A program made the position numbers and the translations under genes. From the NCBI GenBank assembly GCA_044368015.1, contig JBIPLF010000006.1, positions 1 through 61,251 on the forward strand: a DNA stretch of 61,251 nucleotides, given 5' to 3'. The notes beneath the pieces were generated by a model that was given only the letters and a program-made list of their open reading frames with translations, was not told where the DNA came from and made no database searches. The first letter of the stretch is position 1. Each line of letters begins with the position of its first letter. This document shows, in pieces, positions 1 through 17,677 of the stretch. The stretch comes from Rickettsiales bacterium. Its GTDB lineage: Bacteria > Pseudomonadota > Alphaproteobacteria > Rickettsiales > RI-342.

Positions 1-324
1 CACTTTATCCAACCAGAGACCAAACAATTCGCAGGATTCTTTGCCTGCTTCATGGTGCTGTTCACCACCACTGGCATCGCCAACGGATCTGTTTTCCGCA
101 TGATTGGTGTGATTTTCCCACCCAAGGAAAAAGCACCTGTTCTGGGTTTCAGCGCGGCCATTGCTGCTTACGGCGCATTCGTACTGCCCAAATGCTTCGG
201 CTGGTCGATTGAAGCAACCGGTGCCGCTGACACCGCCCTATGGGGTTTCATCGGCTACTACGTCACCTGCCTGTTTGTGACCTACATCTGGTATTTCCGC
301 AAAGGAGCCGAGGTAAAATGCTAA
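1..324 (+). CDS. narK: Nitrate/nitrite MFS transporter, C-terminal part (5' end outside window)
   Basis: Frame open from base 1; nitrate signature-like TGIANGSVFRMI and GFSAAIAAYGAF; directly upstream of narG. Confidence 0.9.
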   Translation, partial: HFIQPETKQFAGFFACFMVLFTTTGIANGSVFRMIGVIFPPKEKAPVLGFSAAIAAYGAFVLPKCFGWSIEATGAADTALWGFIGYYVTCLFVTYIWYFRKGAEVKC

Positions 325-345
325 ATTTCATGAAAAAGCGAGAAG

Positions 346-359
346 TTGATCCACATCAA
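346..359. promoter_or_regulatory. FNR/DNR-family binding site upstream of narG
   Basis: Perfect TTGAT-CCAC-ATCAA, 60 bp before the narG start. Confidence 0.9.
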
Positions 360-419
360 TCACGCGAGGCAGTTCGCCACCTAACATCCAGCAGCATAAC
401 ATCCTAGGAAGAGCACAAT

Positions 420-3400: not shown

Positions 3401-4217
3401 CGAGGATGAGAAAATCCGCTATCGTGATATTCAGGCGCAACCGCGCAAGATTATCTCGTCACCGACATGGAGCGGGATTGAATCTGAGCATGTGAGTTAC
3501 ACGGCAGGCTACACCAACGTGCATGAGCTGATTCCGTGGCGCACACTGACAGGCCGTCAGCAGCTTTATCAGGATCATTCGTGGATGCGGGCATTCGGCG
3601 AGCAGCTTTGCACCTACAAACCGCCGGTAGATTTGAAAACCACGGACGAGGTGAGCAAGCGCTTCGGCAAAGGCCGTAAGGAGGTGGTGCTGAACTTCAT
3701 CACGCCGCACCAGAAATGGGGTATTCACTCGACCTATACAGATAATCTGCTGATGCTAACGCTATCGCGTGGTGGACCAATCATCTGGGTTTCGGAGATC
3801 GATGCGAAAAAAATCGGTGTCATCGATAATGACTGGGTGGAAGCCTACAATGCCAACGGCGCGCTAACCGCACGCGCGGTAGTCAGTCAGCGCGTACCGG
3901 AAGGCATGATGATGATGTACCACGCGCAGGAGAAAATTGTGAATGTACCGGGCAGTGAAATCACCGGAGCACGCGGTGGTATCCACAATTCCGTTACACG
4001 CACCGTACTAAAACCTACGCACATGATTGGTGGCTATGCACAGCTTTCGTATGACTTTAACTATTACGGAACGGTAGGCAGTAACCGCGACGAATTTGTC
4101 GTGCTGCGTAAGATGGATAAGGTGGAATGGATGAACGAAGACAGCTACGGCGACAAGCTCTTCCACGGCGAGATTCCACGCTTAGAGCAAACCGCACTTG
4201 GCAAACAGGGAGCATAA
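420..4217 (+). CDS. narG: Respiratory nitrate reductase alpha subunit
   Basis: 1265 aa; RSTHGVNCTGSCSW...PRGC FS0 motif; Mo-bisPGD family motifs; no Tat signal. Confidence 0.99.
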   Translation: MSYLIDKLTFFKQAKEPFANGHGITTDESREWEHTYRDRWQHDKIVRSTHGVNCTGSCSWKIYVKNGLVTWETQQTDYPRTRPDMPNHEPRGCSRGASYSWYLYSANRLKYPLIRSRLLKAYRDAKKIAKDPVNAWAAVVGNEQTRKSYQKVRGLGGFVRTDWDEVNEIIAAANVYTAKQHGPDRIIGFSPIPAMSMVSYAAGSRYLSLIGGVCMSFYDWYCDLPPSSPQTWGEQTDVPESADWYNSNFIIAWGSNVPQTRTPDAHFFTEVRYKGAKTVAVTPDYSEVAKLCDLWMHPKQGTDAALAMAMGHVIAAEWHVKGKSDYFDDYCRMYTDMPFLVRLIKNKDGYLVPERMLRASDFEGNMGTDNNPDWKPVIMCGHEEKVRIPNGTIGSRWGQKGKWNLEPKDEVTGEELWPLLSLMEHSKREVVSAAFPYFGNLEHEHFNSTDHASILERNIPAIKMKLKDGEAIVTTCYDLFIANYGVDRGLGGGNVASSFDDDVPYTPAWQEHITGVKREHVINVARQFAENAHKTHGKSMVIIGAAMNHWYHMDMNYRAIINMLVMCGCIGKSGGGWSHYVGQEKLRPQTGWAPLAFATDWNRPPRQQNSTSFFYAHTDQWRYEKLKMEEILSPLEDNTDWKNASFIDCNAKSERMGWLPSAPQMERNPLELGKIIKDSGEAVGAAVAAGLKSGELKLSCHNPDAPQNWPRNMFVWRSNILGSSGKGHEYFLKHLLGTQHGVQGKDLGEEGRSLSKEVVWHDKAPEGKLDLLVTLDFRMSTTCMYSDIVLPTATWYEKHDLNTSDMHPFIHPLSAAVDPAWESRTDWDIYKGIAKKFSEVCVGHLGVEQDVVLNPIKHDTQNEIAQGIDVKDWMRGECEPIPGKTMPSVHLVERDYPNTYKKFTSLGPMLAKLGNGGKGVSWNTEHELKALADLNYTVTEEGISKGQPRIETAIDAAETIMMLAPETNGEVAVKAWKALGEATGRDHTHLADTREDEKIRYRDIQAQPRKIISSPTWSGIESEHVSYTAGYTNVHELIPWRTLTGRQQLYQDHSWMRAFGEQLCTYKPPVDLKTTDEVSKRFGKGRKEVVLNFITPHQKWGIHSTYTDNLLMLTLSRGGPIIWVSEIDAKKIGVIDNDWVEAYNANGALTARAVVSQRVPEGMMMMYHAQEKIVNVPGSEITGARGGIHNSVTRTVLKPTHMIGGYAQLSYDFNYYGTVGSNRDEFVVLRKMDKVEWMNEDSYGDKLFHGEIPRLEQTALGKQGA

Positions 4218-4221
4218 GGCA

Positions 4222-5751
4222 ATGAGAGTAAGAGCACAAATCGGTAAAGTCCTCAATCTGGACAAATGCATCGGTTGCCACACCTGTTCGGTCACCTGCA
4301 AAAACGTATGGACGTCGCGTCGTGGCGTGGAATATGCGTGGTTTAACAACGTCGAAACCAAGCCGGGTATTGGTTATCCCAAAGACTGGGAGAACCAAAA
4401 ACGCTGGAATGGCGGCTGGACGCGCAAGAAAAACGGCAAGCTGCAACCCAAGCAAGGCGGTAAATGGCGGAGCTTGGCAAATATCTTCGCCAATCCGAAT
4501 ATGCCGTCTATCGATGATTATTACGAGCCGTTTACCTTCGATTACGAGCATTTGCAGAAATCGCCGGAATCGAAAACCATGCCTTCTGCCCAACCCGTAT
4601 CGGTGATTACTGGCAAGAAAATGGATAAGATTGTGGGTGGGCCGAACTGGGAAGAAATTTTGGGTGGCGAATTCGAGCATCGCAGCAAGGATTACAATTT
4701 CGAGAACGTGCAGAAGGAAATGTACGGTCAGTTCGAGAATACCTTCATGATGTATTTGCCTCGTTTGTGCGAACATTGCCTAAATCCTACCTGCGTTGCT
4801 GCGTGCCCATCAGGTTCGATCTATAAGCGCGAGGAAGATGGCATTGTGCTTATCGATCAGGATAAGTGTCGTGGTTGGCGCATGTGCGTTTCGGCATGCC
4901 CGTATAAAAAAATCTACTTCAACTGGGAGTCTGGCAAGTCAGAGAAATGTACCTTCTGTTATCCGCGTATTGAAGCGGGTGAGCCAACTGTTTGTTCAGA
5001 AACCTGTGTGGGACGCATCCGCTATTTAGGCGTGCTGCTCTATGATGCCGATAAGATTGAGGCAGCCGCAAGCACCGAAGATGAGAAAGATTTGTATCAG
5101 GCACAGCTAAACATGTTCCTTGATCCAAATGATCCAGAAGTGATTGCTGCCGCGAAAGCCGAGGGGATTCCTGATAGCTGGATGGAGGCGGCCAGACGTT
5201 CCCCCGTTTATAAAATGGTAATGGAATGGAAGATTGCATTCCCGCTACACCCTGAATATCGGACGTTACCGATGGTATGGTATATCCCGCCGCTCTCACC
5301 CATTCAGAATGCCGCAGAAAGTGGCGAGATGGGCATGAACGGGGTGATTCCCGATGTAAAAAGCCTTCGCATTCCGGTGATGTATCTGGCAAATCTGCTC
5401 ACGGCTGGTAAAGTTGAGCCGGTAGTGGTTGCGCTCGAGAGGATGCTTGCGATGCGTAGCTTCATGCGCTCCCGCCATGTGGACGGGGTCGTGAACACCG
5501 AAGTGCTCAAGCAAACCAATACGAGCGAAGCCATGGTCGAGGAGATGTATCGCTACATGGCTATTGCAAACTACGAAGATCGCTACGTCATCCCCACTTC
5601 GCACAAGGAATATGCGATGTCGGCATTTGATGTGCGTTCTGGCTGTGGCTTCTCGTTCGGCGATGGCTGTAACAGCGGCGGCAACGATTACAACATGTTC
5701 AGTAAACCAAAACGTAAGAACCTATTCGGAGGCACCCATGCCAGTAGCTAA
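4222..5751 (+). CDS. narH: Respiratory nitrate reductase beta subunit
   Basis: MRVRAQIGKVLNLDKCIGCHTCSVTCKNVW; four Fe-S Cys clusters; ATG at 4222. Confidence 0.99.
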   Translation: MRVRAQIGKVLNLDKCIGCHTCSVTCKNVWTSRRGVEYAWFNNVETKPGIGYPKDWENQKRWNGGWTRKKNGKLQPKQGGKWRSLANIFANPNMPSIDDYYEPFTFDYEHLQKSPESKTMPSAQPVSVITGKKMDKIVGGPNWEEILGGEFEHRSKDYNFENVQKEMYGQFENTFMMYLPRLCEHCLNPTCVAACPSGSIYKREEDGIVLIDQDKCRGWRMCVSACPYKKIYFNWESGKSEKCTFCYPRIEAGEPTVCSETCVGRIRYLGVLLYDADKIEAAASTEDEKDLYQAQLNMFLDPNDPEVIAAAKAEGIPDSWMEAARRSPVYKMVMEWKIAFPLHPEYRTLPMVWYIPPLSPIQNAAESGEMGMNGVIPDVKSLRIPVMYLANLLTAGKVEPVVVALERMLAMRSFMRSRHVDGVVNTEVLKQTNTSEAMVEEMYRYMAIANYEDRYVIPTSHKEYAMSAFDVRSGCGFSFGDGCNSGGNDYNMFSKPKRKNLFGGTHASS

Positions 5752-6448
5752 ATTTCAAACTTTCAAAGCACTTGGCATCTTGCTGTGCTACCCTACGGCA
5801 GAGTGGCAGCAAGGTGTGGTAGAACTCGCCGAGCTTATTAACCGCGAAGCTATCTTAAAGCCGCAGGACAGAGAGGCAATTCGTGCCTTTGCGGCAGATG
5901 CAGCGGAAAGCGACCTGTTTGATTTACAGGAGGCTTACGTGGATGCGTTTGACCGCGTACGCTCCTTGTCTTTGCATTTGTTTGAGCATGTGCACGGCGA
6001 GTCGCGGGATCGCGGTCAGGCAATGGTTGATCTAGCTGGAGTGTATGCCGAACATGGCTACGAATTATCGGCCAGTGAATTGCCAGACTATCTCCCCGTA
6101 TTTCTAGAGTTTCTCTCCATACTTCCGAACCATGAAGCCGTTGAAATGCTGGGTGACCCACTGCATGTGATTGAAGCACTCAGTAAACGTCTGGCCGAGC
6201 GTGGAGCGGCGCAGCACATCATCCTCGATAGCCTGATCCGGTTTATGGGCAAAGAACCTGTAAAAGTAATACCAAGACCGCGAGCAGAGGTGATTGATTT
6301 CGCTGCGATGGATAAGGAATGGGAAGAAAAGCCAATAGAATTCTTAGGTGCCAGCGCACCAGCTGCAACAGGTGGCTGCGGCGGCGGAAGCTGTGGTGGC
6401 GGTGGATGTGGCGGAGGGAAACCACAAGCAATGGAGCAACGGATATGA
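5738..6448 (+). CDS. narJ: Nitrate reductase Mo-cofactor assembly chaperone
   Basis: SLHLFEHVHGESRDRGQAMVDL and ELPDYLP motifs; ATG 5738 after GGAGG; overlaps narH end. Confidence 0.96.
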   Translation: MPVAKFQTFKALGILLCYPTAEWQQGVVELAELINREAILKPQDREAIRAFAADAAESDLFDLQEAYVDAFDRVRSLSLHLFEHVHGESRDRGQAMVDLAGVYAEHGYELSASELPDYLPVFLEFLSILPNHEAVEMLGDPLHVIEALSKRLAERGAAQHIILDSLIRFMGKEPVKVIPRPRAEVIDFAAMDKEWEEKPIEFLGASAPAATGGCGGGSCGGGGCGGGKPQAMEQRI

Positions 6449-7134
6449 GTACTTTCTTTCATGAATTTTTCTTTGGCATGTTGCCCTACATCGTGCTGGT
6501 GGTGATGGTGCTTGGCACAATCATCCGTTATGACCGCGAGCCTTATTCATGGCGCGCTGCCTCAAGCCAGATTCTGGCGGATAAAGGCTTGCGTGTCGGC
6601 AACATCCTGTTTCATATCGGCGTGATTTTCCTGTTTTTCGGGCATCTCGTCGGCCTGCTGACACCGCACAGTATTTACCATCACGTCATCAGTGCAGAGA
6701 ATAAGCAGATGGTGGCGATTGTGATGGGTGGGCTTTTCGGCACGATCTGTTTTATCGGCCTCACCATTTTGTGTGTTCGCAGATTGTTTGTAGCACGGGT
6801 ACGCGTGACCAGTGCACCGGCAGATGTCGCAATTCTGGTCATCCTCTGGGTGCAGTTGGTGCTTGGGCTGACGACGATTCCATACTCACTCGGCCATTCT
6901 GATGGCAGTGTGATGATGGCGCTGTCAGAATGGTGCCAGAGTATCATCACCTTCCAGGGCGCACATCCGGAGTTGATTGAGCCGCTGGCATGGCCTTACA
7001 AGGCGCACCTGATTTTGGGGATGTTCATTTTCTTCCTGTTTCCCTTCACCCGTCTGGTGCATATTTTAAGCGCACCCGTGCGTTATGTCTGGCGCCCTTA
7101 TCAGGTGGTGCGTAGCCGAGCAGCGAGGAGATAG
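6445..7134 (+). CDS. narI: Respiratory nitrate reductase gamma (cytochrome b) subunit
   Basis: Five TM helices; FHIG..GHLVGLLTP and PFTRLVH haem ligands; ATGA overlap with narJ. Confidence 0.97.
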   Translation: MSTFFHEFFFGMLPYIVLVVMVLGTIIRYDREPYSWRAASSQILADKGLRVGNILFHIGVIFLFFGHLVGLLTPHSIYHHVISAENKQMVAIVMGGLFGTICFIGLTILCVRRLFVARVRVTSAPADVAILVILWVQLVLGLTTIPYSLGHSDGSVMMALSEWCQSIITFQGAHPELIEPLAWPYKAHLILGMFIFFLFPFTRLVHILSAPVRYVWRPYQVVRSRAARR

Positions 7135-7136
7135 TC

Positions 7137-7607
7137 ATGCCCGTATTTGTGAATAAAGTAGAAATCACCGACGATGAGGTGTTTGCAGAAATGCAATACC
7201 ATCCTGCCGAGAATGTTGCCGAAGCACAATATCAGGCAGCACTCGCACTCACCATTCGTGAGCTTTTATGTCAGGAAGCGTCACGGCTTGGCATCACACC
7301 TCCGGTGGAGCAGGACGATACGGAGCTCACACGCGAATATCTGGTGAACAGCCTTCTTGAGCAGGAAATCACCGTGCCCACTCCGACGGAAGAAGAATGC
7401 GAGCGTTATTATCAGCGCAATCCGTCCATATTCAGAGATCAGGGCGGCAACGTCGTGCCTTTTGCCGCCGTGCGTGAGTCGATAGCGGAATATCTGCAGG
7501 AAGCCAGCGAACAGCAAGCGATGAAACACTATGTGAAGATACTGGCTGGACAGGCAAGCATTGCGGGTATTACGCTTGAGCGTGCCACCAGTCCTCTGGT
7601 GAATTAA
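7137..7607 (+). CDS. nar-associated NifM/PpiC-like protein, apparently lacking the parvulin domain
   Basis: V.I...EMQYHPA N-terminus and ATSPLV C-terminus typical of the PPIase-like gene after narI; only 156 aa. Confidence 0.75.
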   Translation: MPVFVNKVEITDDEVFAEMQYHPAENVAEAQYQAALALTIRELLCQEASRLGITPPVEQDDTELTREYLVNSLLEQEITVPTPTEEECERYYQRNPSIFRDQGGNVVPFAAVRESIAEYLQEASEQQAMKHYVKILAGQASIAGITLERATSPLVN

Positions 7608-7706
7608 TTTACAAAGCACGTTGCAGGACTTGGTGTTGCCGAGCATCTGATCGCGCAAGTAATCGCGATTGCGGGCAGCACACGCAATGAAGTGCTGAAT
7701 CGCTAA
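7606..7706 (+). pseudogene. C-terminal remnant of a group I truncated haemoglobin (GlbN/trHbN-like), frameshifted
   Basis: Two frames join to NLQSTLQD/LGVAEHLIAQVIAIAGSTRNEVLNR*, resembling the G-H helices of trHb1; no start or 5' part. Confidence 0.7.
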
Positions 7707-7709
7707 CGC

Positions 7710-8957
7710 CTAAAACTTCACCTGCACATACGGCATGATTTTCGTGGTATCGGTTGAGAAGTTATCGGCCTCGTAATGGCCAGCCTGCATACCGATGGTG
7801 TAATGCGACTCAATCGTTTGCTCGAAGAATAGGTTCCACTCATTGCCGTAGTGCGTATCGCCTTTTTCTGCCCTAAAGTCATGGTAGCGCACCATAGCAC
7901 GCGTTCCGTTAAGCCATTTCTGCTCGGAGGCAACGGTGTAATTGACTGCGATGTTCATATCGATGAGGCCATTCGCCGGTGTCGTCAGGAACTTATCCAC
8001 CCAGCCATCAAACGCATGGTTGGTGCCGATGGCAAATTGCATGGCATTGGTGCCATCACCTTCGATTCGCTCATACTGACCTAAGATTTTCCACTGGCCA
8101 AAGGCAATGCCCGGCTCAATCATATAATAGTTAAAGCTCGTATTATTCGGGTTATTAGCGTAGTCTATTTGATGGGCATATTCGAGCGATAACAATCCCG
8201 TGAAGGTTTTGTCTATGGGCTGTTTTCCTTCAAACCGTGCGCCATAGGTGGCGCTCGACAAGGCAGCAGAGTCGGGAATATCCAGCAGGTAACTATACCC
8301 CACCAGCTTCCCGTAAGGTAGACCCGTGTAGGAAGCGTTGATCAGGTGAATATGGCTATCATCCCACACCCCAACAGGTGAGTTTGTACCCTGAACACGA
8401 TTGACCTGATTAGCGTAGGCATAATAGAGCGTCGTATCGGGCAGTGAGGTGTTAGATACTGAGAGCGCATCGAAGGTCTGGTCGTTTTGCCGCCATGCAA
8501 TGCCACCAACGAATCGCTGATTGTCGAGTTGAATCGTTTGCCGCCCCAGAATAGCCTTGGTATCTGGAAGACCTGCATAGGTCAGCATTAGCCGATTGAG
8601 ATTGGTATCTTCTGGATCAACAACGACAGGGTAGCGCGTTTTGCCGTTAATGCTGTCGTTGAAGCGTTCCGTCCCCAAACTCTCCAGATGCTCAAATTCA
8701 ATGAGTGCCGAAAAATCTTTATAGGCACCGGTTTCATAGCCAAGCCGTGTGACCAATGTGTGCGCGTGGGCGTCTTCCGGCAGCCCGTCCTGATCGACAT
8801 ACTCATAACGGTAACGCGAGAGGAACAGAGGTTTTCCGTCCATCAACGCTCTTTCAAACTCGCTTTTTACAGCTGTTGGCTCTGCCGCATAGGCTGGAAA
8901 GCTGGCAACGATGCATAGGGTAAGTGCGCTTGTCAGTAGTAGTCGGCGGTTCGTCAT
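7710..8957 (-). CDS. Outer-membrane beta-barrel porin, alginate-export (AlgE-like) family
   Basis: Signal peptide; RYRYEYVDQ, GRQ.I.LDNQRFVG...WRQN.QTFD and H.F.GW.DKFL motifs; C-terminal Phe. Confidence 0.8.
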   Translation of the reverse strand: MTNRRLLLTSALTLCIVASFPAYAAEPTAVKSEFERALMDGKPLFLSRYRYEYVDQDGLPEDAHAHTLVTRLGYETGAYKDFSALIEFEHLESLGTERFNDSINGKTRYPVVVDPEDTNLNRLMLTYAGLPDTKAILGRQTIQLDNQRFVGGIAWRQNDQTFDALSVSNTSLPDTTLYYAYANQVNRVQGTNSPVGVWDDSHIHLINASYTGLPYGKLVGYSYLLDIPDSAALSSATYGARFEGKQPIDKTFTGLLSLEYAHQIDYANNPNNTSFNYYMIEPGIAFGQWKILGQYERIEGDGTNAMQFAIGTNHAFDGWVDKFLTTPANGLIDMNIAVNYTVASEQKWLNGTRAMVRYHDFRAEKGDTHYGNEWNLFFEQTIESHYTIGMQAGHYEADNFSTDTTKIMPYVQVKF

Positions 8958-9018
8958 AGTGTCCTCATTGAAGTGGTAATCATGCGCGAAAACCTAATGG
9001 GTAAAAGCGTCATACGAA

Positions 9019-9032
9019 TTGATCCGGCTCAA
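9019..9032. promoter_or_regulatory. FNR/DNR/NnrR-type box between divergent porin and nnrS
   Basis: TTGAT-CCGG-CTCAA (1 mismatch). Confidence 0.75.
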
Positions 9033-9093
9033 GTGTTTTTATGTGTTTGAGCCGTAGCATCGCCATCACATCCCAATATGGAAGGCGCTGCAC

Positions 9094-10272
9094 ATGACCT
9101 TAATCAATATCTCCGAGCCTGAAAGACCATTGCTAAACGGATTTGCCCTGTTCCGGCTTGGCTTTCGCCCATTCTTTCTGCTTGGTAGTCTGTGTGGACT
9201 CTTGGTGCTTGGCTATTTCATCCTGCTGATAAGCGGCATGGCGACGGAGCTGCCAAGCAGATGGGATATGGTGGAGTGGCATCGCCATGAAATGCTGTTT
9301 GGTTTTGTGGGTGCAATTGTTGCAGGGTTTTTGCTCACGGCAGTACCCAACTGGACGGGACTGCCCACCGTAAAAGGATCACGTTTGGCAGCCCTCACGG
9401 GGCTTTGGTGCGCCGGACGTGCATGCGTGTTCATGTCAGCGTCGCTGCCTGAAGCGTTAGTTATGGCGGTAGATGCCAGTTTTTTCGTGGGCTGTGCGCT
9501 TGCGATTGCGCCTGCGCTCATTCGTTCAAACAATAAACGCAACTATGGATTCATCGCGTTATTACTACTTTTGGCCTTGGCATCTGGGCTCACGCACGGT
9601 GAATATGCCGATGCAGGCATCCGCCTTGGCCTTGGTGTCGTCACCCTCATGATGACGCTGATAGGTGGGCGGGTGATTCCCTTCTTCACCGAGCGACGGC
9701 TGGGTATTAGCATCACACGCAACCCACGCATCGAAAAGCTCACGATGATTTGTACGGCGCTTGCTGTTCTGTGCAACGCCATTGCACCCGATGCGCCATG
9801 GCTGTATTTGCTTTTCATCGCAGCGGGCGTAGTGAATCTCTGGCGGTTTACTTCCTGGCAAACAGCCAAAACCTTCAGCATTCCGCTGCTATGGGTGCTG
9901 CATGCAGGCTACATCTGGCTGATCTTCAGCTTCTTTGCCAAAGCAGCCGTGCTGATGGGGCTTTCAGTGCCTGCAGCCTTTGCCACCCACAGCCTGACCG
10001 CTGGGGCGATGGGCACTCTCATTCTCGGTATGATTGCGCGTGTATCGCTGGGGCATAGCGGCAGGCCTCTGGAAATCGGAAAAGCCATGCATATCGCATT
10101 TGTGGCGATTAATTTGGCCGCATTGCTTCGCGTGTTTGGCTGGTGCCTGCCGATAGATACGATGACAGGATTTCAGCTTGCGGCCTTGTGCTGGATCACT
10201 GCCTACGGCCTCTTTGTGGTGATGTATACGCCGATTCTTCTTCGCCCAAGACTGGATGGCAAAGATGGATAA
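9094..10272 (+). CDS. nnrS: NnrS family membrane protein (NO stress)
   Basis: GFRPFFL, WHRHEMLFGF, GFLLTAVPNWTG, GGRVIPFFT and RVSLGHSGR motifs. Confidence 0.95.
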   Translation: MTLINISEPERPLLNGFALFRLGFRPFFLLGSLCGLLVLGYFILLISGMATELPSRWDMVEWHRHEMLFGFVGAIVAGFLLTAVPNWTGLPTVKGSRLAALTGLWCAGRACVFMSASLPEALVMAVDASFFVGCALAIAPALIRSNNKRNYGFIALLLLLALASGLTHGEYADAGIRLGLGVVTLMMTLIGGRVIPFFTERRLGISITRNPRIEKLTMICTALAVLCNAIAPDAPWLYLLFIAAGVVNLWRFTSWQTAKTFSIPLLWVLHAGYIWLIFSFFAKAAVLMGLSVPAAFATHSLTAGAMGTLILGMIARVSLGHSGRPLEIGKAMHIAFVAINLAALLRVFGWCLPIDTMTGFQLAALCWITAYGLFVVMYTPILLRPRLDGKDG

Positions 10273-11701
10273 TCAACCACCACTTCTGACGCTGCCCGAA
10301 GATGACATGCGCCGTATGGCGGAGAAGGTATTTGGCCTGATTGTTGATCATTTCGCTGGTCTTAAGGACTTACCCGTCACCACACCATCCACGCTGGAGC
10401 ATATCACCGAGGGCCTGCACGAGCCGATGCCGACGCAGCCAGTGCCTGTCGAGCAGCTTCTTGCGCAGCTTAAAACCCATGTGTTCGACCAGATGACGCA
10501 TCTGGATCATCCGCGTTATTTTGCCTTCGTGCCAGGGCCAAGCAACTTTGTCAGCGCGATGGCGGACGCGATTGCTTCCTCGTTTAACGTCTTCAGCGGG
10601 GCATTTATCGGCCCGTCTGGTGTGGCGCAGATCGAAGTCACTACCATTGAGTGGCTGCGTGAGCTATTCCGCTTTCCGCAAGATGCAGGCGGGTTATTTG
10701 TCAGCGGCGGCTCGATGGCGAATATGACAGGGCTAGCGGTGGCACGGCATGTGATGTTGGCAGGCAATACCACCAACGCCACGGTGTATTTCTCGGATCA
10801 AACCCATTCATCCGTAGCCAAAGGTCTCAAGATTCTTGGTTTTCAGCAGTTCCAGCTGCGCAAGATTGCTTCCGACGCGACCTTTCGCCTTTCAGCGGAT
10901 GCATTGCGCCAGCAGATCGCGACGGATCGGCTGCAAGGGCTGGTGCCATTTTGCGTGGTGGCCAATGCAGGAACCACAAATGCTGGTGCGGCTGATCCTA
11001 TCAAGGAACTCTCGGCATTTTGCAAAGCCGAAGGCTTATGGCTGCATGTGGACGGTGCCTATGGCGGTAGCGCAGCCATTACCGAGCGTGGACGCAAAGT
11101 GCTCGAAGGTATAGAGCTGGCAGACTCGCTGGGCATCGACCCGCATAAATGGATGTTCCAGCCTTATGAGATCGGCTGCGTGTTGGTGCGTAACCGCGAG
11201 CATCTGAAAAACACCTTCCGCTTCTCGGCGGAATATCTGAAGCTCAATGAGCAATGCGCCGAGCAGATCAATTTCTGTGATTACGGTGTACAGCTGACAC
11301 GCGGATTCCGTGCGCTGAAGCTCTGGTTATCGCTCAAAGCCTTTGGCGTGGAGGCGTTCCGGGCAGCCATCACCAAGGGCATAGAGAACGCCGAAGTTGT
11401 CGAATCGCTACTACGCAACGATAGCTGCTGGGAGATCATCACGCCCGCACAGCTGGGAATCATCGCTTTCCGTTACCGCGCAGATGGGTTGGATGAACCG
11501 TCGCTGAACGAACTGAATAATCGTATCGCGCAAGACATCATCTATTCCGGCTATGCGATGCTCAGCCCGACCATCCTCGGCGGCAAACATGTGCTGCGCA
11601 TGTGCACGATCAACCCCCGCACCACCTATGACGACTTGAAGCAAACGGTCGGGATGCTGAAATCCTTCGGCGAGCATATCGAAGTCAAACCAGTATCTTA
11701 G
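10265..11701 (+). CDS. Group II PLP-dependent amino-acid decarboxylase (aromatic-L-amino-acid/DABA decarboxylase-like)
   Basis: HPRYFAFV, GLFVSGGSMAN, WLHVDGAYGG and DPHKW (PLP Lys); overlaps nnrS stop (alternative ATG 10256). Confidence 0.9.
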   Translation: MDNQPPLLTLPEDDMRRMAEKVFGLIVDHFAGLKDLPVTTPSTLEHITEGLHEPMPTQPVPVEQLLAQLKTHVFDQMTHLDHPRYFAFVPGPSNFVSAMADAIASSFNVFSGAFIGPSGVAQIEVTTIEWLRELFRFPQDAGGLFVSGGSMANMTGLAVARHVMLAGNTTNATVYFSDQTHSSVAKGLKILGFQQFQLRKIASDATFRLSADALRQQIATDRLQGLVPFCVVANAGTTNAGAADPIKELSAFCKAEGLWLHVDGAYGGSAAITERGRKVLEGIELADSLGIDPHKWMFQPYEIGCVLVRNREHLKNTFRFSAEYLKLNEQCAEQINFCDYGVQLTRGFRALKLWLSLKAFGVEAFRAAITKGIENAEVVESLLRNDSCWEIITPAQLGIIAFRYRADGLDEPSLNELNNRIAQDIIYSGYAMLSPTILGGKHVLRMCTINPRTTYDDLKQTVGMLKSFGEHIEVKPVS

Positions 11702-11738
11702 AGGAAATGTCACACCGTTTATCCCTTTTTTAGAGAAC

Positions 11739-11752
11739 TTGATCTGGGTCAA
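11739..11752. promoter_or_regulatory. FNR-type box upstream of nrdD
   Basis: TTGAT-CTGG-GTCAA (1 mismatch). Confidence 0.75.
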
Positions 11753-11765
11753 ATGCACCCATTAG

Positions 11766-11812
11766 ACACAAGATGTAGTATCAACTCCGCCTAAAGCACC
11801 AACATATAGTCA
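11766..11812. promoter_or_regulatory. Tandem NrdR boxes
   Basis: ACACAAGATGTAGTAT (11766) and CACCAACATATAGTCA (11797), 31 bp apart, matching acaCwAtATaTwGtg. Confidence 0.75.
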
Positions 11813-11828
11813 AAACAAGGGGGATTCT

Positions 11829-14063
11829 ATGCAACTAACCGAAACTGCCACACCAACGCCCACCACCACCCAATTGCCGCGCACGCTGCAGCCCGCCGCT
11901 CAGAAGCCGAATGTATTTTCACTCTCGGTGCATGCGAGCCTGAAGGAGGCGTTTGTGGCCTCGGGCGAAGGCAGTTTCGATGCGTTCATGTCGTTACTTT
12001 CTACCTCGAAAGAAGCGCTGGCTGACAGCGCGATGGAAAGCGTGATCGAGGACGAGTTGGCAGCAGCAGGTTACGTTAAAACCCTTAAGTCATTCATCCT
12101 GAACCGCAACCGTGCCACCGCACAGGACACGCTGGTGAGCTGCAAACAGGCGGTTGAGGAATATATTTTGCAGCAGGATTGGCGGGTCAATGCCAATGCG
12201 AACACCGCTTACAGCAATGCGGGGCTAATCAATAACTCGGCAGGCAAGATTATCGCCAATTACTGGCTCGATAATGTCTATTCGCCCGAAGAAGGTCAGG
12301 CACATCGCCGCGCGGATTACCATATCCATGATCTTGACTGCCTTACGGGATACTGTGCGGGCTGGAGCCTGCGCGCGCTGCTCGATGAAGGCTTCAACGG
12401 TGTTGCTGGGAAAGTGTCGAGCCGTCCGCCGCGCCATTTCCGCGAGGCGTTGGGGCAAATGGCGAATTTCCTCGGTATTCTCCAATCCGAATGGGCGGGT
12501 GCACAGGCCTTCAGCTCGTTCGATACTTACCTTGCGCCCTATGTTTTCAAAGACAGGCTACCTTTCATCGAAATCAAAAAGGCCATCCGCCAGTTCGTCT
12601 ATAACTTGAATGTTCCGGCGCGTTGGGGGCAAAGCCCGTTCACCAACATCACGCTCGACATCACCGTGCCGCCAGATCTTCGTGATAATTTCCCAACCGC
12701 GAACTGCACCCATCTGTTCCGCGATATTGATGATCCTGAAATTATGGCGGAAGCAGCTAAACGTGGAGTCACCAACCTCGAAGACATGACCTACAAACAT
12801 TTCCAGCCGGAGATGGAGCAAATCGTCATCGCGTACTACGAGGTGATGACCGAGGGTGACTCGCACGGCCAGCCCTTTACCTTCCCGATTCCGACCGTCA
12901 ATGTGATGGAGGATTTCGATTGGGAAAGCCCTGTGGCCAAGGCACTGTTCGAGAACACCGCTAAAATCGGCAGCTCCTATTTCCAGAACTTCATCGGCAG
13001 CCAGTATATGCTGAACGATAAGGGGGAGAAAGTGCAGAACCCCGATGCCTATGCGCCGCACGCGGTGCGCAGTATGTGCTGTCGCTTGCAGCTTGATTTG
13101 CGTGAGCTGATGAAACGTGGCAACGGCCTGTTCGGTTCGGCAGAGATGACGGGGTCGATAGGCGTGGTGACGCTCAACATGGCGCGGCTTGGCCACCGTT
13201 ACAAAGGCGATATGCTTGGGCTGATTCAGGAAACCGAACGGCTGATGACCCTCGCTAAATCCACGCTGGAGAAAAAGCGCGTGTTCATTCAGGAAATGTA
13301 TGATCGCGGCCTGTTCCCCTATACGCGCCGCTACCTGCCGCATCTTCGCAACCATTTCAGCACGATTGGTGTGAATGGCATGAACGAGATGGTGCGTAAC
13401 TTCACCGGCGATACCTACGACATCACCGATCCGCGCGGCATGAAAATGTGCGAGGAAATTCTGGATTATATGCGCGTTGAGCTAAAGAAGTTTCAGGAAG
13501 AAACAGGGCATCTCTACAATCTCGAAGCGACACCCGCCGAAGGCACCACCTACCGCTTTGCCAAAGAAGACCGCAAGGCGTATGGCAATGCCATCATCCA
13601 GGCGGGCTGCGAGGAGAATATCTACTACACCAACTCTACGCAGATTCCCGTGGGCTATACCGAAGACCCATTCGAGGCACTGAATCTGCAGGATAAGCTG
13701 CAATGCAAATATACAGGCGGCACGGTGCTACACCTGTATATGAGCGAACAGATTTCCTCTGGTGAGGCCTGCAAACGGTTGGTGCGGAAGGTGATTGAGA
13801 ATTATCGCTTGCCTTACATCACCATCACGCCCGTGTTCTCGGTGTGTGAAACCCACGGCTATCTCACGGGTGAGCAATCCCATTGCCCGGATTGCGGCAA
13901 AGAGACGCTCGTATGGACGCGGGTGATGGGCTATCACCGCCCGGTGGCCAGCTTCAATCTCGGCAAGAAAGGTGAGCATAAGGAGCGCAAGCATTTCAAA
14001 GAAAATGCGTCGCCACACCTGCCGCTCTTTACCACGGAGAGCGCGTGTTGCAGCGGGCATTAA
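11829..14063 (+). CDS. nrdD: Anaerobic (class III) ribonucleoside-triphosphate reductase
   Basis: YHIHDL, SMCCRL finger loop, LEATPAEG, YTGGTVLH, Zn site CETH..CPDC, glycyl radical motif RVMGY. Confidence 0.97.
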   Translation: MQLTETATPTPTTTQLPRTLQPAAQKPNVFSLSVHASLKEAFVASGEGSFDAFMSLLSTSKEALADSAMESVIEDELAAAGYVKTLKSFILNRNRATAQDTLVSCKQAVEEYILQQDWRVNANANTAYSNAGLINNSAGKIIANYWLDNVYSPEEGQAHRRADYHIHDLDCLTGYCAGWSLRALLDEGFNGVAGKVSSRPPRHFREALGQMANFLGILQSEWAGAQAFSSFDTYLAPYVFKDRLPFIEIKKAIRQFVYNLNVPARWGQSPFTNITLDITVPPDLRDNFPTANCTHLFRDIDDPEIMAEAAKRGVTNLEDMTYKHFQPEMEQIVIAYYEVMTEGDSHGQPFTFPIPTVNVMEDFDWESPVAKALFENTAKIGSSYFQNFIGSQYMLNDKGEKVQNPDAYAPHAVRSMCCRLQLDLRELMKRGNGLFGSAEMTGSIGVVTLNMARLGHRYKGDMLGLIQETERLMTLAKSTLEKKRVFIQEMYDRGLFPYTRRYLPHLRNHFSTIGVNGMNEMVRNFTGDTYDITDPRGMKMCEEILDYMRVELKKFQEETGHLYNLEATPAEGTTYRFAKEDRKAYGNAIIQAGCEENIYYTNSTQIPVGYTEDPFEALNLQDKLQCKYTGGTVLHLYMSEQISSGEACKRLVRKVIENYRLPYITITPVFSVCETHGYLTGEQSHCPDCGKETLVWTRVMGYHRPVASFNLGKKGEHKERKHFKENASPHLPLFTTESACCSGH

Positions 14064-14764
14064 ACAAGCTCCCCATCACGAGCATCACTCCCTTCACCTT
14101 TCAGGATTACCCTGAGCATACCGCCTGTATTTTGTGGTTCTCTGGGTGCAATATGGCATGCAGCTACTGTCATAATCCTGAACTGGTGAAGGGAGAGCTT
14201 GCCAAATTGCCTCCGCAGCAGGTGATCGAATTTCTTGAATCACGTAAAGGCCTGCTCGAAGGCGTGGTGCTATCGGGCGGTGAGTGCATGATGAGCGCGC
14301 AGCTTCCAGAATTCGCCCGATACCTGAAAATGCTCGGCTTCAAGGTGAAGGTGGATACTAACGGCACCAACCCCGATATGCTGGAAAAAATGCTCGGCGA
14401 GAACATGATTGACTATGTGGCGCTCGATTACAAAGCACCGCCCGATCTGTTCCAGAGCATCACAGGGTTTGATGGCTATGCGCTGTTCGAGCGATCCCTT
14501 AATCTGCTTATCGCGTCCGGCATTTCGCTTGAAATTCGCACCACCGTCCACGCTGACCTGCTGGATGAAGAAGACATCAATTCCATATTGAAACATCTGG
14601 AAAATCTTGAATTCAGTGGCACCTATTACGTGCAGAATTTCCGTGCTGGAAAAACGTTGGGCAATTTGGATGAGCCGTTTAATCGCTTCGATGTCAGCCG
14701 CTTGAACAAGCACACTATCCGATGTGAAACACGAGGATTTGGAAGGGCAGTGACAAACCAATAA
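14045..14764 (+). CDS. nrdG: Anaerobic RNR activating radical-SAM protein
   Basis: CNMACSYCHNP, GVVLSGGE, KVDTNG; overlaps nrdD end. Confidence 0.93.
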   Translation: MLQRALNKLPITSITPFTFQDYPEHTACILWFSGCNMACSYCHNPELVKGELAKLPPQQVIEFLESRKGLLEGVVLSGGECMMSAQLPEFARYLKMLGFKVKVDTNGTNPDMLEKMLGENMIDYVALDYKAPPDLFQSITGFDGYALFERSLNLLIASGISLEIRTTVHADLLDEEDINSILKHLENLEFSGTYYVQNFRAGKTLGNLDEPFNRFDVSRLNKHTIRCETRGFGRAVTNQ

Positions 14765-14865
14765 GTTGCACAAACCTTATCCATATCAATTATGGGTTGT
14801 CGGCTCGTGAATATGGTTATCTCCCCGCTTGGGGAATTTCATCAACCATATCACAGGAGTAGACC

Positions 14866-15153
14866 ATGGAAAATCCTTATTTAAAATTCGCCGATCATTT
14901 TTATAGCCTCAGCCCCTATGACCTTCAGCATTTGAGCGAATGCGTGCTTTGCAAGATAGAGCAGGTCTTTGAAGACAAGCTCTGCAGCAAATGTACCCAT
15001 ATCGAGCTGACCGAGAAGGATATCAAATTCGCCATCACCGAAGCGATGAAAGATATCGTCCTCGATCTGCGAAAGCAGGAGCTTGAAATCAAGAGAATCC
15101 AGCTTCAGCAGGCCGAAGCCTTACTGCATGTCGACAGACGAATTGTTGGCTGA
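14866..15153 (+). CDS. Hypothetical protein (95 aa)
   Basis: AGGAG RBS, ATG start; no recognised family. Confidence 0.6.
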   Translation: MENPYLKFADHFYSLSPYDLQHLSECVLCKIEQVFEDKLCSKCTHIELTEKDIKFAITEAMKDIVLDLRKQELEIKRIQLQQAEALLHVDRRIVG

Positions 15154-15158
15154 TTGCT

Positions 15159-15187
15159 TTGACATTGATTGCTCAACATTTTATCGT
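15159..15187 (+). promoter_or_regulatory. Sigma70 promoter driving the C4-like RNA
   Basis: TTGACA-17 bp-TATCGT. Confidence 0.7.
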
Positions 15188-15193
15188 ATCACC

Positions 15194-15358
15194 CGAGGGG
15201 GCTGTAATCCCCTAAATACTGCGATTAAGTTTTTAAAGTAGGCTCGTATCACAAAGCCCTGCTTCCGCACGCTCATGCGTCGGGAGTAGGCTCAATACAA
15301 TACCCGAAAGGGGAATAGGCCTGCGCTCGTATTTAGGCGATTACAACTCCCGGCACCA
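15194..15358 (+). ncRNA. C4/CI antisense-RNA-like element (phage P1/P4 immunity type)
   Basis: GTCGGGAG(15279)...CTCCCGGC-ACCA(15358) tRNA-like closing stem; CCC-GAAA-GGG hairpin flanked by AATACAATA/GAATA; 15329-15350 is complementary (19/22) to upstream 15198-15219. Confidence 0.65.
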
Positions 15359-15392
15359 TGCCGAGGTGTGGTAACTTAAAGATGATATCTGA

Positions 15393-15428
15393 ATCCGCGT
15401 AGCAGCAATGCTCGCGGATTTTTATTTT
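15393..15428 (+). terminator. Rho-independent terminator
   Basis: ATCCGCG(T)AGCA-GCAA-TGCTCGCGGAT followed by TTTTATTTT. Confidence 0.75.
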
Positions 15429-15447
15429 GACAATTTTCTGAGGGAAA

Positions 15448-15523
15448 TGGTGCCGCTTAGGTGACTCGAACACCTGACCCCATCATTACGAATGATGTGC
15501 TCTACCAACTGAGCTAAAGCGGC
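15448..15523 (-). tRNA. tRNA-Thr(CGT), complete, CCA encoded
   Basis: GCCGCTTTAGCTCAGTTGGTAGAGCACATCATTCGTAATGATGGGGTCAGGTGTTCGAGTCACCTAAGCGGCACCA; putative promoter TTGCAA-17-TAAATC at 15533-15561. Confidence 0.97.
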
Positions 15524-15665
15524 CCATGAGGAGATTTACAAATACTCACAAGCACTTGCAAACCTTTTGCTGACATGGCGCTGATACAAGAGATGCATCA
15601 GCGATATGATTACTTCCTAACTCTTTGTCCTTCCAAACTTACTTCCCGCTCACGCCGCTGTCGCT

Positions 15666-15710
15666 CCCCGCATTACGAATGCGGTGCTCTACCAACTGAG
15701 CTAAGACGGC
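15666..15710 (-). pseudogene. 5' half of a second, different tRNA-Thr(CGT) gene (probable island junction)
   Basis: GCCGTCTTAGCTCAGTTGGTAGAGCACCGCATTCGTAATGCGGGG, then non-tRNA sequence; upstream TTGAAA-17-TAAAGA. Confidence 0.9.
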
Positions 15711-15783
15711 ATCAGAAAAAACACTTGCAGGAGCCGGTCTTTACCCGGAATCGACGCCGGTTTCAAGCGAAAGGGTGAGGCGG

Positions 15784-16539
15784 CTACCGCGAAACCGGTT
15801 TCTGCGACTGCACCCCGAAATACAAATAGGCGCAGATGACCATCAGCACGGTGGTTTCGGGCGAGGCCATGAAGGGCCGCAGCCAGCTATCCACCAGAAG
15901 GGCGGGGGTAATGACCACGGCGCTCAGCCGGACTGCCTGCCCGAAGGAGGCCGGGCGTTTAGCTACAAACAACACCCACATGGCAAACAGCGCGGTGATG
16001 ATGAGGTGCGAAAGGGCGCTGCCCATCCCCATCACCAGCAGGGTGGGTAGCAGCCCCAGCAGCAGGTAGTAGGGCGCACGCTCAAACAGGCGAGCGACCT
16101 TCTCTGCCGTGATGGTGAAGGATTCAAACCGGGCAAGCGGCAAGGATTCCACAACCGTTCCCTGATAGCGCAGGCTGAGCGTATGGGAGGTAAGCACCAG
16201 CCCACTGGTGAAATCGGCGGGTATTTTGGCTTTCCTGGCGGTATCCACCAGCAATATCGGTTCGCCTTTAGAGGTGGCCACCCGGACAGCCCCCTCCTGC
16301 ACGGCCTTTGCCACCCCCTGATCCACGGTAATGGTGGGGATTTGCGAGGCGATAAACGGCCCTTCATCCCGTGCAAACGCGGCCATTTGAGCATGCACCA
16401 CCGCGTAGAAAGGCACCACTGCGACCACCACCGCCACACACAGATAGCCAAACCATCCGCCGGGGATGGCTTTCCCCGCGTCACGGTAAAGCGACGGATC
16501 GTACAGGCTACGAAACACAGCGGCGAAAAGACGGAACAT
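15784..16539 (-). CDS. Membrane protein, DUF1189-like
   Basis: N-terminal RSLY.P..Y, TM-IP.I.V..G soluble domain-three TM layout. Confidence 0.6.
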   Translation of the reverse strand: MFRLFAAVFRSLYDPSLYRDAGKAIPGGWFGYLCVAVVVAVVPFYAVVHAQMAAFARDEGPFIASQIPTITVDQGVAKAVQEGAVRVATSKGEPILLVDTARKAKIPADFTSGLVLTSHTLSLRYQGTVVESLPLARFESFTITAEKVARLFERAPYYLLLGLLPTLLVMGMGSALSHLIITALFAMWVLFVAKRPASFGQAVRLSAVVITPALLVDSWLRPFMASPETTVLMVICAYLYFGVQSQKPVSR

Positions 16540-16561
16540 GGGGCAATCTATAACCGGAACG

Positions 16562-16798
16562 CTAGCGTTCGTCGCCATGTTTTTGCGTGCGGTATTGGCG
16601 ATAGAGGGAGAACAGTAAGCGGAGCGCTCCCCCTCCGCACAACACCAGCACACAGAGTCCGATGCCGATTCCCTGCCCAGTATCTCCAGAACCGCTCAGG
16701 GCGTCGAATATCAGAACCGCGCCGATGAAGGCTCCTGCCAGCAGCCACAGGGTCAGCAACAGTTTGGCGGCAAACACACCCCACTGGAGCGCATGCAT
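16562..16798 (-). CDS. Small two-TM hypothetical protein
   Basis: 78 aa hydrophobic ORF starting 6 bp after the folD stop. Confidence 0.55.
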   Translation of the reverse strand: MHALQWGVFAAKLLLTLWLLAGAFIGAVLIFDALSGSGDTGQGIGIGLCVLVLCGGGALRLLFSLYRQYRTQKHGDER

Positions 16799-16804
16799 AT
16801 CGGC

Positions 16805-17677
16805 TTACCCAACGCCCAACTGCCGACGGCAGGCGATCAGCGTGTTTTCCAGCAGGCAGGCGATGGTCATCGGCCCTACCCCGCCGGGCACGGGAGTAAT
16901 CGCCGATGCACGCGTGAGGCTGCTGGCAAAATCCACATCTCCCACCAGCATATCCTTGCCGCCCTCCTGAATGCGGTTGATGCCCACATCCAGCACGATC
17001 GCGCCCTCTTTCAGCCACGCGCCCTGCACAAAGAGCGGCTTGCCGATTGCCGCCACCACAATATCGGCCTCTGCCACCAGAGCGGGGAGGTTCTGCGTGC
17101 GGGAATGGGCCACCGTCACCGTGCAATCGGCATTGAGTAATAGCGCCGCCATCGGTTTACCCACAATCGCCGAACGGCCAATCACAAGCGCCCGCTTGCC
17201 GGAGAGATCTGGGCATACACTGCGCAGCAGCAGCATGGAACCTCTGGGGGTGCAGGGAATCAGCGCTTCCGGTTCGCCGGTGAGCCAGCGTCCGCGATTG
17301 ACGGGATGAAAGCCATCCACATCTTTCTCCGGCAGAATGGCTTCCACCACCTGTTTTTCGTCCAATCCTTTGGGCAGCGGCAACTGCACCAATATGCCAT
17401 GTACGGATGGGTCGGCATTCAGCGCGGCCACGGTTTCCATGAGGACGGCCTGCGAGGTATCAGCCGGGAGCCGGTGCTCGATGGAGTGAATCCCCGCCTC
17501 GCTCGCCGCTTTCACCTTGTTGCGCACATAGACCTGACTGGCAGGGTCATCGCCCACCAGCACCACGGCAAGGCCGGGGGTGATGCCATGCGCGGCGCGG
17601 AGCTGCGCCGTGTGAGTGGCAATGTCAGCGCGCAATGCAGCGGCAATCGCCTTGCCGTCGATGATGTGGGTGGTCAT
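16805..17677 (-). CDS. folD: Methylene-THF dehydrogenase/cyclohydrolase
   Basis: [20 protein letters not shown] and [12 protein letters not shown]. Confidence 0.98.

Follow-up and report, generated by a model that had tools for sequence, protein, structure and literature searches.

A split tRNA-Thr(CGT) gene and its substitute as the probable left junction of a family of integrative islands in Alphaproteobacteria

Why does the 5' half of a tRNA-Thr(CGT) gene stand 142 bp away from a complete gene that has the same anticodon and other stems? The question is raised by the window, that is, the whole stretch of 61,251 nucleotides analysed here, which makes up an entire contig (C34) of an 87-contig, 1.92-Mb assembly (genome G000) of a Rickettsiales bacterium. 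An initial annotation of this DNA had read the pair as a resident gene cut in two by an integrating element that brought a whole substitute with it. We consider it very probable that positions 15448–15710 are the left junction (attL) of a large integrative island, one of a family whose target is tRNA-Thr(CGT) and which is known from environmental alphaproteobacterial MAGs. In the predicted mechanism, a P4/lambda-type tyrosine integrase with an arm-binding domain would recombine attP with the host gene inside the sequence TTCGTAA, leaving the host 5' half at the left end (15710–15673) and carrying the host 3' half to the far right end, and the loss would be made up by the island's own complete tRNA-Thr(CGT) (15523–15448), located 142 bp inside the left arm with a conserved upstream sequence. 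Neither junction rebuilds a tRNA, because the identity between attP and the target extends over only 7–14 bp. From the sequence comparisons described below, we infer that this cut is the work of the integrase and that the cell expresses the substitute tRNA and depends on it.

Anatomy of the junction

The features of the window and the evidence for them are as follows.

15710–15666, minus strand: 5' half of tRNA-Thr(CGT) as first delimited; it reads as tRNA over 15710–15668
15680–15710, minus strand: host-derived 5' part, tRNA positions 1–31 (acceptor GCCGTCT, D arm, stem strand CCGCA); from the sequence, Rfam and the stop of homology to genome G038 at 15711
15673–15679, minus strand: common core TTCGTAA, the anticodon loop and putative attL crossover region; the only block common to attL and attR in all seven comparable pairs (of eight pairs)
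15524–15672, minus strand: island left arm (P' arm), TGCGGGGAGCGACAG...; from spacer identity across genomes
15603–15579: hairpin in the left arm
15561–15533, minus strand: promoter-like TTGCAA-N17-TAAATC in the left arm, 9 nt before the full tRNA
15448–15523, minus strand: complete tRNA-Thr(CGT) with encoded CCA; ARAGORN, and Rfam tRNA at 69.9 bits
15279–15362, plus strand: sRNA-Xcc1 family RNA, the first cargo feature; Rfam RF02221 at 55 bits (gathering score 53)
1–15447, no single strand: island cargo to the contig end (narGHJI, PpiC-like, porin, NnrS, PLP decarboxylase, NrdD, NrdG, 95-aa ORF); Pfam and ORF order
15784–16653, minus strand: host flank, DUF1189 gene; Pfam
16805–17677: host flank, folD, next to the DUF1189 gene; Pfam

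The complete gene passes the gathering threshold of the Rfam tRNA family (RF00005) and forms a complete cloverleaf over model positions 1–71. The half (15710–15668, minus strand) consists of the acceptor strand GCCGTCT, a D arm, the anticodon stem CCGCA/TGCGG and the loop TTCGTAA, after which the sequence is no longer that of a tRNA; Rfam scores it as a truncated tRNA without a T arm (31.1 bits against a gathering score of 29; E-value 2e-4 in an 801-base search), and 40 nt of it align with the 5' part of the complete gene at 90% identity. The island letters that follow the anticodon loop, TGCGGGGAGCGACAGCGG..., contain neither a T arm nor the 3' strand of an acceptor stem, and the split tRNA is not restored by island sequence at the window junction, as it would be in an island of the Islander type. 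On these points the initial annotation was accurate: the half at 15710–15666 is recovered by Rfam and from the sequence itself and the complete gene at 15523–15448 by ARAGORN and Rfam, the distance between the end of the half (15666) and the start of the full gene (15523) is 142 bp as given, and the stems do differ, the full gene having GCCGCTT and CATCA/TGATG. The description "promoter-bearing" is not confirmed: a scan for sigma-70 consensus promoters returned no minus-strand site in 15350–15850; the TTGCAA-N17-TAAATC motif, recognisably kept with substitutions in the relatives' loci, is no more than suggestive of a promoter for the full tRNA. The word "isoacceptor" is better replaced by "isodecoder", because the half and the full tRNA share their anticodon. 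According to ARAGORN and a pattern search of the genome, the island-borne gene is the sole tRNA-Thr(CGT) of the assembly, other contigs of which carry tRNA-Thr(GGT) and, on C63, tRNA-Thr(TGT). The latter tRNA might read ACG by wobble.

A joint between two similar tRNA pieces could also arise in the computer, for example if two tRNA-Thr loci had been fused via common k-mers, and the initial annotation had itself named a misassembly at 15665 as a possibility to be excluded. Many MAG contigs do stop inside the spacer, and in the probable source run (X1) the Logan contigs are interrupted at the pieces of tRNA. Such a chimera is nevertheless vanishingly improbable, because contigs from two other studies cross the joint at 15665/15666 with more than 31 letters on either side (the X2 contig covers 15478–15712 and the X5 contig 15495–15703, each with one difference), and the identical junction is found in 16 independently assembled genomes. 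Five MAG contigs (L030, L033, L035, L036 and L037) end within the 142-bp spacer, which makes the junction a frequent assembly breakpoint, and none of X2, X5 and X8 gives cover beyond 15748. Another joint, leading from 15479 to 15669 with "TA" in between and a short side of 24–33 letters, resembles an intact native-type tRNA of some organism in the sample; neither this joint nor the limit of cover enters the argument.

Horizontally transferred DNA and recurrence of the junction

The extent of the incoming DNA is revealed by genome G038, which belongs to another family of the same order. An alignment of 15,740 columns runs collinearly between window positions 1–15711 and G038:C3 at 86.5% identity; it ends on the half-tRNA's first base, with no DNA homology to G038 beyond 15711; a second copy in the same genome (G038:C4) is 90–94% identical to the window island. 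At the amino acid level, NrdD of the window genome is 99% and 96% identical to its G038 counterparts, whereas FolD, encoded in the host flank, is only 60% identical, and the GC content is 52.1% in the island part as compared with 58.1% in the rest of the window. The nar–nrd block, the tRNA and the spacer are therefore horizontally transferred DNA, and the edge of this DNA coincides with the half-tRNA. Leftward from the full tRNA, the cargo comprises the sRNA-Xcc1 RNA, the 95-aa ORF, nrdG, nrdD, the PLP decarboxylase gene, nnrS, the porin gene, the PpiC-like gene and narIJHG, which reaches the contig end, so that window position 1 falls inside the island; Pfam was run on seven ORFs (7137 to 15153), and narGHJI is named from ORF sizes and order alone. 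It appears that nitrate respiration travels on these islands, as a nar–nnrS–nrdDG module passed between families. Beyond the point where the window contig ends, G038 has two narK-sized ORFs (437 and 438 aa, named by size). The sRNA-Xcc1 RNA lies directly after the hairpin of the island tRNA, and the block is also found behind both G038 island copies.

The junction recurs well beyond these two genomes. With a spacer query of 145 bases, scored in 400 genomes of the order (one further genome was not scorable), the spacer was detected in 16 genomes of five families, the window genome included; its identity is 90–98% in six other genomes from three other families (the group comprising G000, G038, G247, G283, G298, G305 and G363) and 74–87%, or partial, in nine more. 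The combination of a half with a different full tRNA, for which the initial annotation had proposed a survey, proved to be the common arrangement. A 5' half lies directly upstream of the spacer in 16 of the 17 loci of these 16 genomes, the exception being G350, whose contig ends in the spacer; downstream of it are 11 complete tRNA-Thr(CGT) genes, one partial tRNA at a contig end, four contigs ending within the spacer and, in G375, a second half. A 23-nt spacer motif retrieved 12 further genome contigs, recorded as MAGs of Rickettsiales, Alphaproteobacteria, Rhodospirillales or Azospirillum, and eight metagenome contigs; the 5' half is present in 19 of these 20 public loci, the one without it being cut by the contig end, and a complete tRNA as well in 16. 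The 5' halves amount to 19 distinct sequences, and the spacer and the full tRNA are conserved.

The position of the break can be read from G038, where the anticodon stem has a 5' strand, ACGGA, that finds no pairing partner in the TGCAA after the loop; the junction therefore lies within the anticodon loop or at it. The left arm of G312, G253 and G139 still resembles a variable loop and the first strand of a T stem, as would fit descent from a canonical attP that degenerated after the element had acquired a complete tRNA; decay of this kind is one of the scenarios discussed in section 11 of PMC10865867.

Displaced 3' halves, integrase and nested islands

The 3' halves that are missing at the left junctions were found elsewhere in the relatives, in nine events from eight genomes (two in G375 and one each in G247, G298, G180, G312, G283, G363 and G038). 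In all nine, the acceptor strand of the orphan 3' half pairs at 7/7 positions with the 5' half of its own genome (including one G–U pair in G038), and among the eight pairs compared for the anticodon stem the pairing is 5/5 in seven and 4/5, judged by eye, in G038. In seven of these events the two halves come from separate contigs of a metagenome bin, and linkage is proven in G375 only. Orphans with upstream sequence are preceded by a conserved right arm ending ...AATGGCT-TTCGTAA, apart from the inner insert of G375, whose arm differs; the orphan of G363 is cut at a contig end. The block identical between attL and attR measures 7 bp in G038, 8 bp in G283, 10 bp in G247, G298 and G180, 12 bp in G312 and 14 bp in G375, and its common denominator is TTCGTAA. 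No matching 3' half was recovered by pattern from G305, G198, G253, G350, G139, G176 or the second G363 locus, in a search that covered the loci other than that of G351. The joined arm motif expected of attP or of a circle junction has a single match in 401 genomes, which is an attR (G357), and the two arm motifs have no exact match in IMG/VR. The G357 locus (L101; G357:C76:5684–5709, minus strand) has a right arm and a 3' half in a genome with no spacer match; the left end of this island may be unassembled.

A 410-aa integrase with Arm-DNA-bind_3, SAM-like and Phage_integrase domains is encoded 2.3–5.9 kb inside the right end, in the orientation of the tRNA, in G247, G038, G283, G298, G312 and G180. 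It is 94–97% identical among G247, G038, G283 and G298, which belong to three families, and 76% and 69% identical in G312 and G180, respectively. The 426-aa integrase of the inner insert of G375, likewise within 2.3–5.9 kb of its orphan 3' half, is only 26% identical to this main type, and the outer island of the same genome (E1) has no recognisable integrase of its own.

In the window genome, the search for the displaced 3' half and an adjacent recombinase, by which the initial annotation had hoped to complete the picture, yielded neither; the best integrase match is 27% identical, and the island runs off the contig. A tRNA-like 3' half ending AGACGGCACCA is absent from the assembly, in which the bare 11-mer occurs twice (C59 and C82) with no preceding T arm, a degenerate 3'-half pattern (up to two mismatches) matches the full tRNA alone, and the right arm of the relatives was not found. 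The missing right end presumably resembles those of the relatives. At G000:C82:28000–29662, a tRNA-Ile has as neighbours an integrase ORF of 390 aa and, on the other strand, a weak tRNA-like match (29.3 bits); the three probably mark another tRNA-linked island in the window genome. In G005 (C63; locus L044), a complete tRNA-Thr(CGT) at 4020–4098 is followed 2.7 kb downstream by an orphan 3' half (6780–6826) of the island type, starting at the anticodon loop; this looks like a small insert of canonical style at that site.

The left arm (15524–15672) and the right arm of the relatives (L050, 8794–9023) have a 36-nt block in common, 28/36 identical and including the TTGCAA-like hexamer, with a similarity score of 32 against 16 ± 2.1 for shuffles. 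Tentatively, the block may represent arm-type binding sites of the integrase or a duplicated promoter.

The foregoing observations also bear on a simpler history, in which a chromosomal tRNA-Thr was duplicated locally in tandem and its upstream copy decayed, with no site-specific integration at all. The tandem arrangement of two pieces that are 90% identical over 40 nt is what such a duplication would leave. We reject it as highly improbable, as the homology to the genome of another family begins exactly at the half, the halves vary across families as the spacer stays conserved, and the missing 3' halves are present elsewhere, with matching stems and beside an integrase. Break-and-replace integration with a whole substitute, as the initial annotation proposed, is instead supported by the comparison, in view of the stop in homology, the variable halves and the displaced 3' halves with integrase in eight relatives.

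Direct evidence that the substitute itself becomes a target is provided by a 442-kb contig of G375 (C20), on which two pairs of halves with matching acceptor strands are nested together. The order begins with 5' half no. 1 (GCCGCCT), the spacer and 5' half no. 2 (GCCGTCT), continues with a 21-kb insert that has its own inverted tRNA-Thr(CGT) and the 426-aa integrase, followed by an orphan 3' half that ends in AGACGGC-ACCA, and closes, after about 52 kb more of cargo, with another that ends in AGGCGGC-ACCA; on the host side, the array is flanked by obg and a rhomboid gene. G038 offers a similar case at C4:4487, where the orphan 3' half belongs to a tRNA of the island type and follows a right arm that matches the arm of G247 at 95% identity. 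The suggestion that the substitute would resist re-targeting is contradicted by these cases, because the substitutes of G375 and G038 are split in turn, and the TTCGTAA block is retained in the substitute; the companion suggestion, that it could serve as a new landing site for further islands, is borne out by the same two genomes.

Nesting raises the question of which gene was broken in the window. The half at 15710–15666 may be a remnant of an earlier island's substitute, in an array that repeat recombination between spacers or halves had collapsed to one half and one spacer. Over the first 38 nt it matches island-borne tRNAs exactly (G375 tRNA no. 2 and L097), so that an earlier substitute, and not the ancestral gene, may have been broken; several halves on metagenome contigs equal island tRNA types, re-targeting is seen in both nested genomes, and in G038 a single 5' half accompanies two right arms and two orphan 3' halves, an imbalance indicating that arrays do lose units. 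Against this, the stretch upstream of the half (15711–15783) does not resemble the island spacer and borders on a host gene, and the leftmost half of any array is expected to be the original host gene. On balance we regard the earlier-substitute history as improbable; it would leave the mechanism unchanged and alter only the identity of the broken gene. The epithet "resident" given to the half by the initial annotation is backed by its position beside a host gene; the assembly holds no 3' half, right arm or orthologous integrase, no island-free close relative was found, and the 38-nt identity with an island-borne type tells against it. Members of the bacterial family have no close DUF1189 homologue (17–31% identity), and the tRNA-Thr(CGT) of G002 is of a GCCGAAG type in a different context. 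In G038, the right-end features lie at C3:36,709, C4:4,487 and C4 about 84,033, one orphan 3' half being of the island type and one native, with a single 5' half plus spacer; the missing 5' half was perhaps lost by recombination between repeated spacers.

We speculate, with rather less than even confidence, that a whole tRNA combined with a core of only 7 nt adapts these islands to a broad range of hosts and to stacking, by which island tRNA alleles sweep through families. If this is true, one integrase lineage (94–97% identical) can enter hosts with differing tRNA-Thr(CGT) stems since no hybrid tRNA has to fold, and, as every arrival renews the landing pad, islands nest and a few island tRNA alleles progressively displace the native tRNA-Thr(CGT). 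The tRNA itself would then be a horizontally sweeping passenger across the families of an order. With many host alleles and near-identical integrases at hand, the idea that a short core widens the host range becomes testable.

Published systems and the cargo of the islands

Phage P22 at thrW is a canonical tRNA-gene prophage. Canonical elements restore the gene by means of a 3' copy of about 40–50 bp in attP, whereas here the identity is 7–14 bp and the gene stays unrestored; the phage Hestia, at tRNA-Thr-CGT, is listed with a 52-bp core (PMC10865867, Table 2). With canonical tRNA-gene islands, the kind collected in the Islander database (PMC4383910), the present islands have in common the tyrosine integrase, the tRNA target and crossover in the anticodon loop, and in both a 3' fragment has been displaced to mark the far end. 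Islander-like finders would miss or misbound this class of island, because they require a restored tRNA together with a displaced fragment.

The break-and-replace strategy has been published before, under the name of tRNA-dependent lysogeny (PMC10865867), and was also noted in two Sinorhizobium prophages (PMC11476347). tRNA-dependent lysogeny is described for the actinobacteriophages Fionnbharth, LeBron, Gaia and others (Guerrero-Bustamante & Hatfull 2024, PMC10865867), whose cores are 8–17 bp and for which the cognate phage tRNA was shown to be required. An arm-binding tyrosine integrase (in the islands, that of six relatives), an attB overlapping a host tRNA, a short core and an element-borne tRNA of the same anticodon are common to these phages and the present islands, the last being carried by the window, by 11 of the 17 genome loci and by 16 of the 20 contig loci. 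The differences lie in the cargo of the islands (nitrate respiration, nrdDG, copper resistance, Thoeris and a methylase, with no HK97 capsid in the mapped parts), in their uncultured alphaproteobacterial hosts, in the tRNA-Thr(CGT) target and in the placement of the substitute, 142 bp from the core inside an attP arm. The same article speculates that a second copy of an element may use the element's own tRNA as attB, and the nested islands described here show just such integration. A Lactobacillus johnsonii prophage, Lj965, also leaves the tRNA unrebuilt at the junction and encodes a cognate tRNA, according to section 11 of PMC10865867; it is a Firmicute prophage, unlike the alphaproteobacterial islands. 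A further case is that of two Sinorhizobium meliloti prophages that, like Mesorhizobium phage vB_MloP_Lo5R7ANS, inactivate tRNA-Leu(UAG) and carry a replacement (PMC11476347). An alphaproteobacterial host, a centrally broken tRNA and a replacement of foreign type are features in common, but that report, in what it says of them, concerns two intact prophages of one species, whereas the islands here occur in at least five families and have their core, arms, integrase and nesting mapped.

In a full-text search for "tRNA-dependent lysogeny", which covers articles without their supplements, no title among the matches listed dealt with non-phage islands or with this order. What is notable here is the cargo, the spread across families and the natural nesting. 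A strategy shown experimentally only in actinobacteriophages is extended to apparently non-phage cargo islands of uncultured Alphaproteobacteria; the natural nested arrays are field evidence that a substitute tRNA is re-used as a landing site; and modules of anaerobic respiration (nar, nnrS, nrdDG) are moved together with defence genes between families, at 96–99% protein identity for NrdD.

As for the type of carrier, the mapped island intervals of G375, G038, G247, G298 and G312 hold no PF02534 coupling protein or PF03432 relaxase, the search being confined to this one relaxase family; all matches to the two families in these genomes fall outside the mapped island parts, and the islands do not classify as ICEs on this evidence. 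Likewise, no PF05065 (HK97) capsid was detected in the mapped island parts of the five genomes, terminase and portal families lying outside the search. From its gene content, the carrier looks like a cargo island and not a phage.

Near the integrase of the relatives, the backbone holds HTH regulators and a DUF1376 protein that matches PHROG "primosomal protein" families; the surrounding genes also include a C5 methylase, DUF6456, copper-resistance genes and a GIY-YIG protein. The right end of both G038 island copies carries a Thoeris ThsA (SIR2 + STALD) with two ThsB TIR proteins, located beside the C5 methylase and the GIY-YIG protein as follows.

L043, 1836–4224: Thoeris genes
L092 (G038:C4), 9260–11771: Thoeris genes
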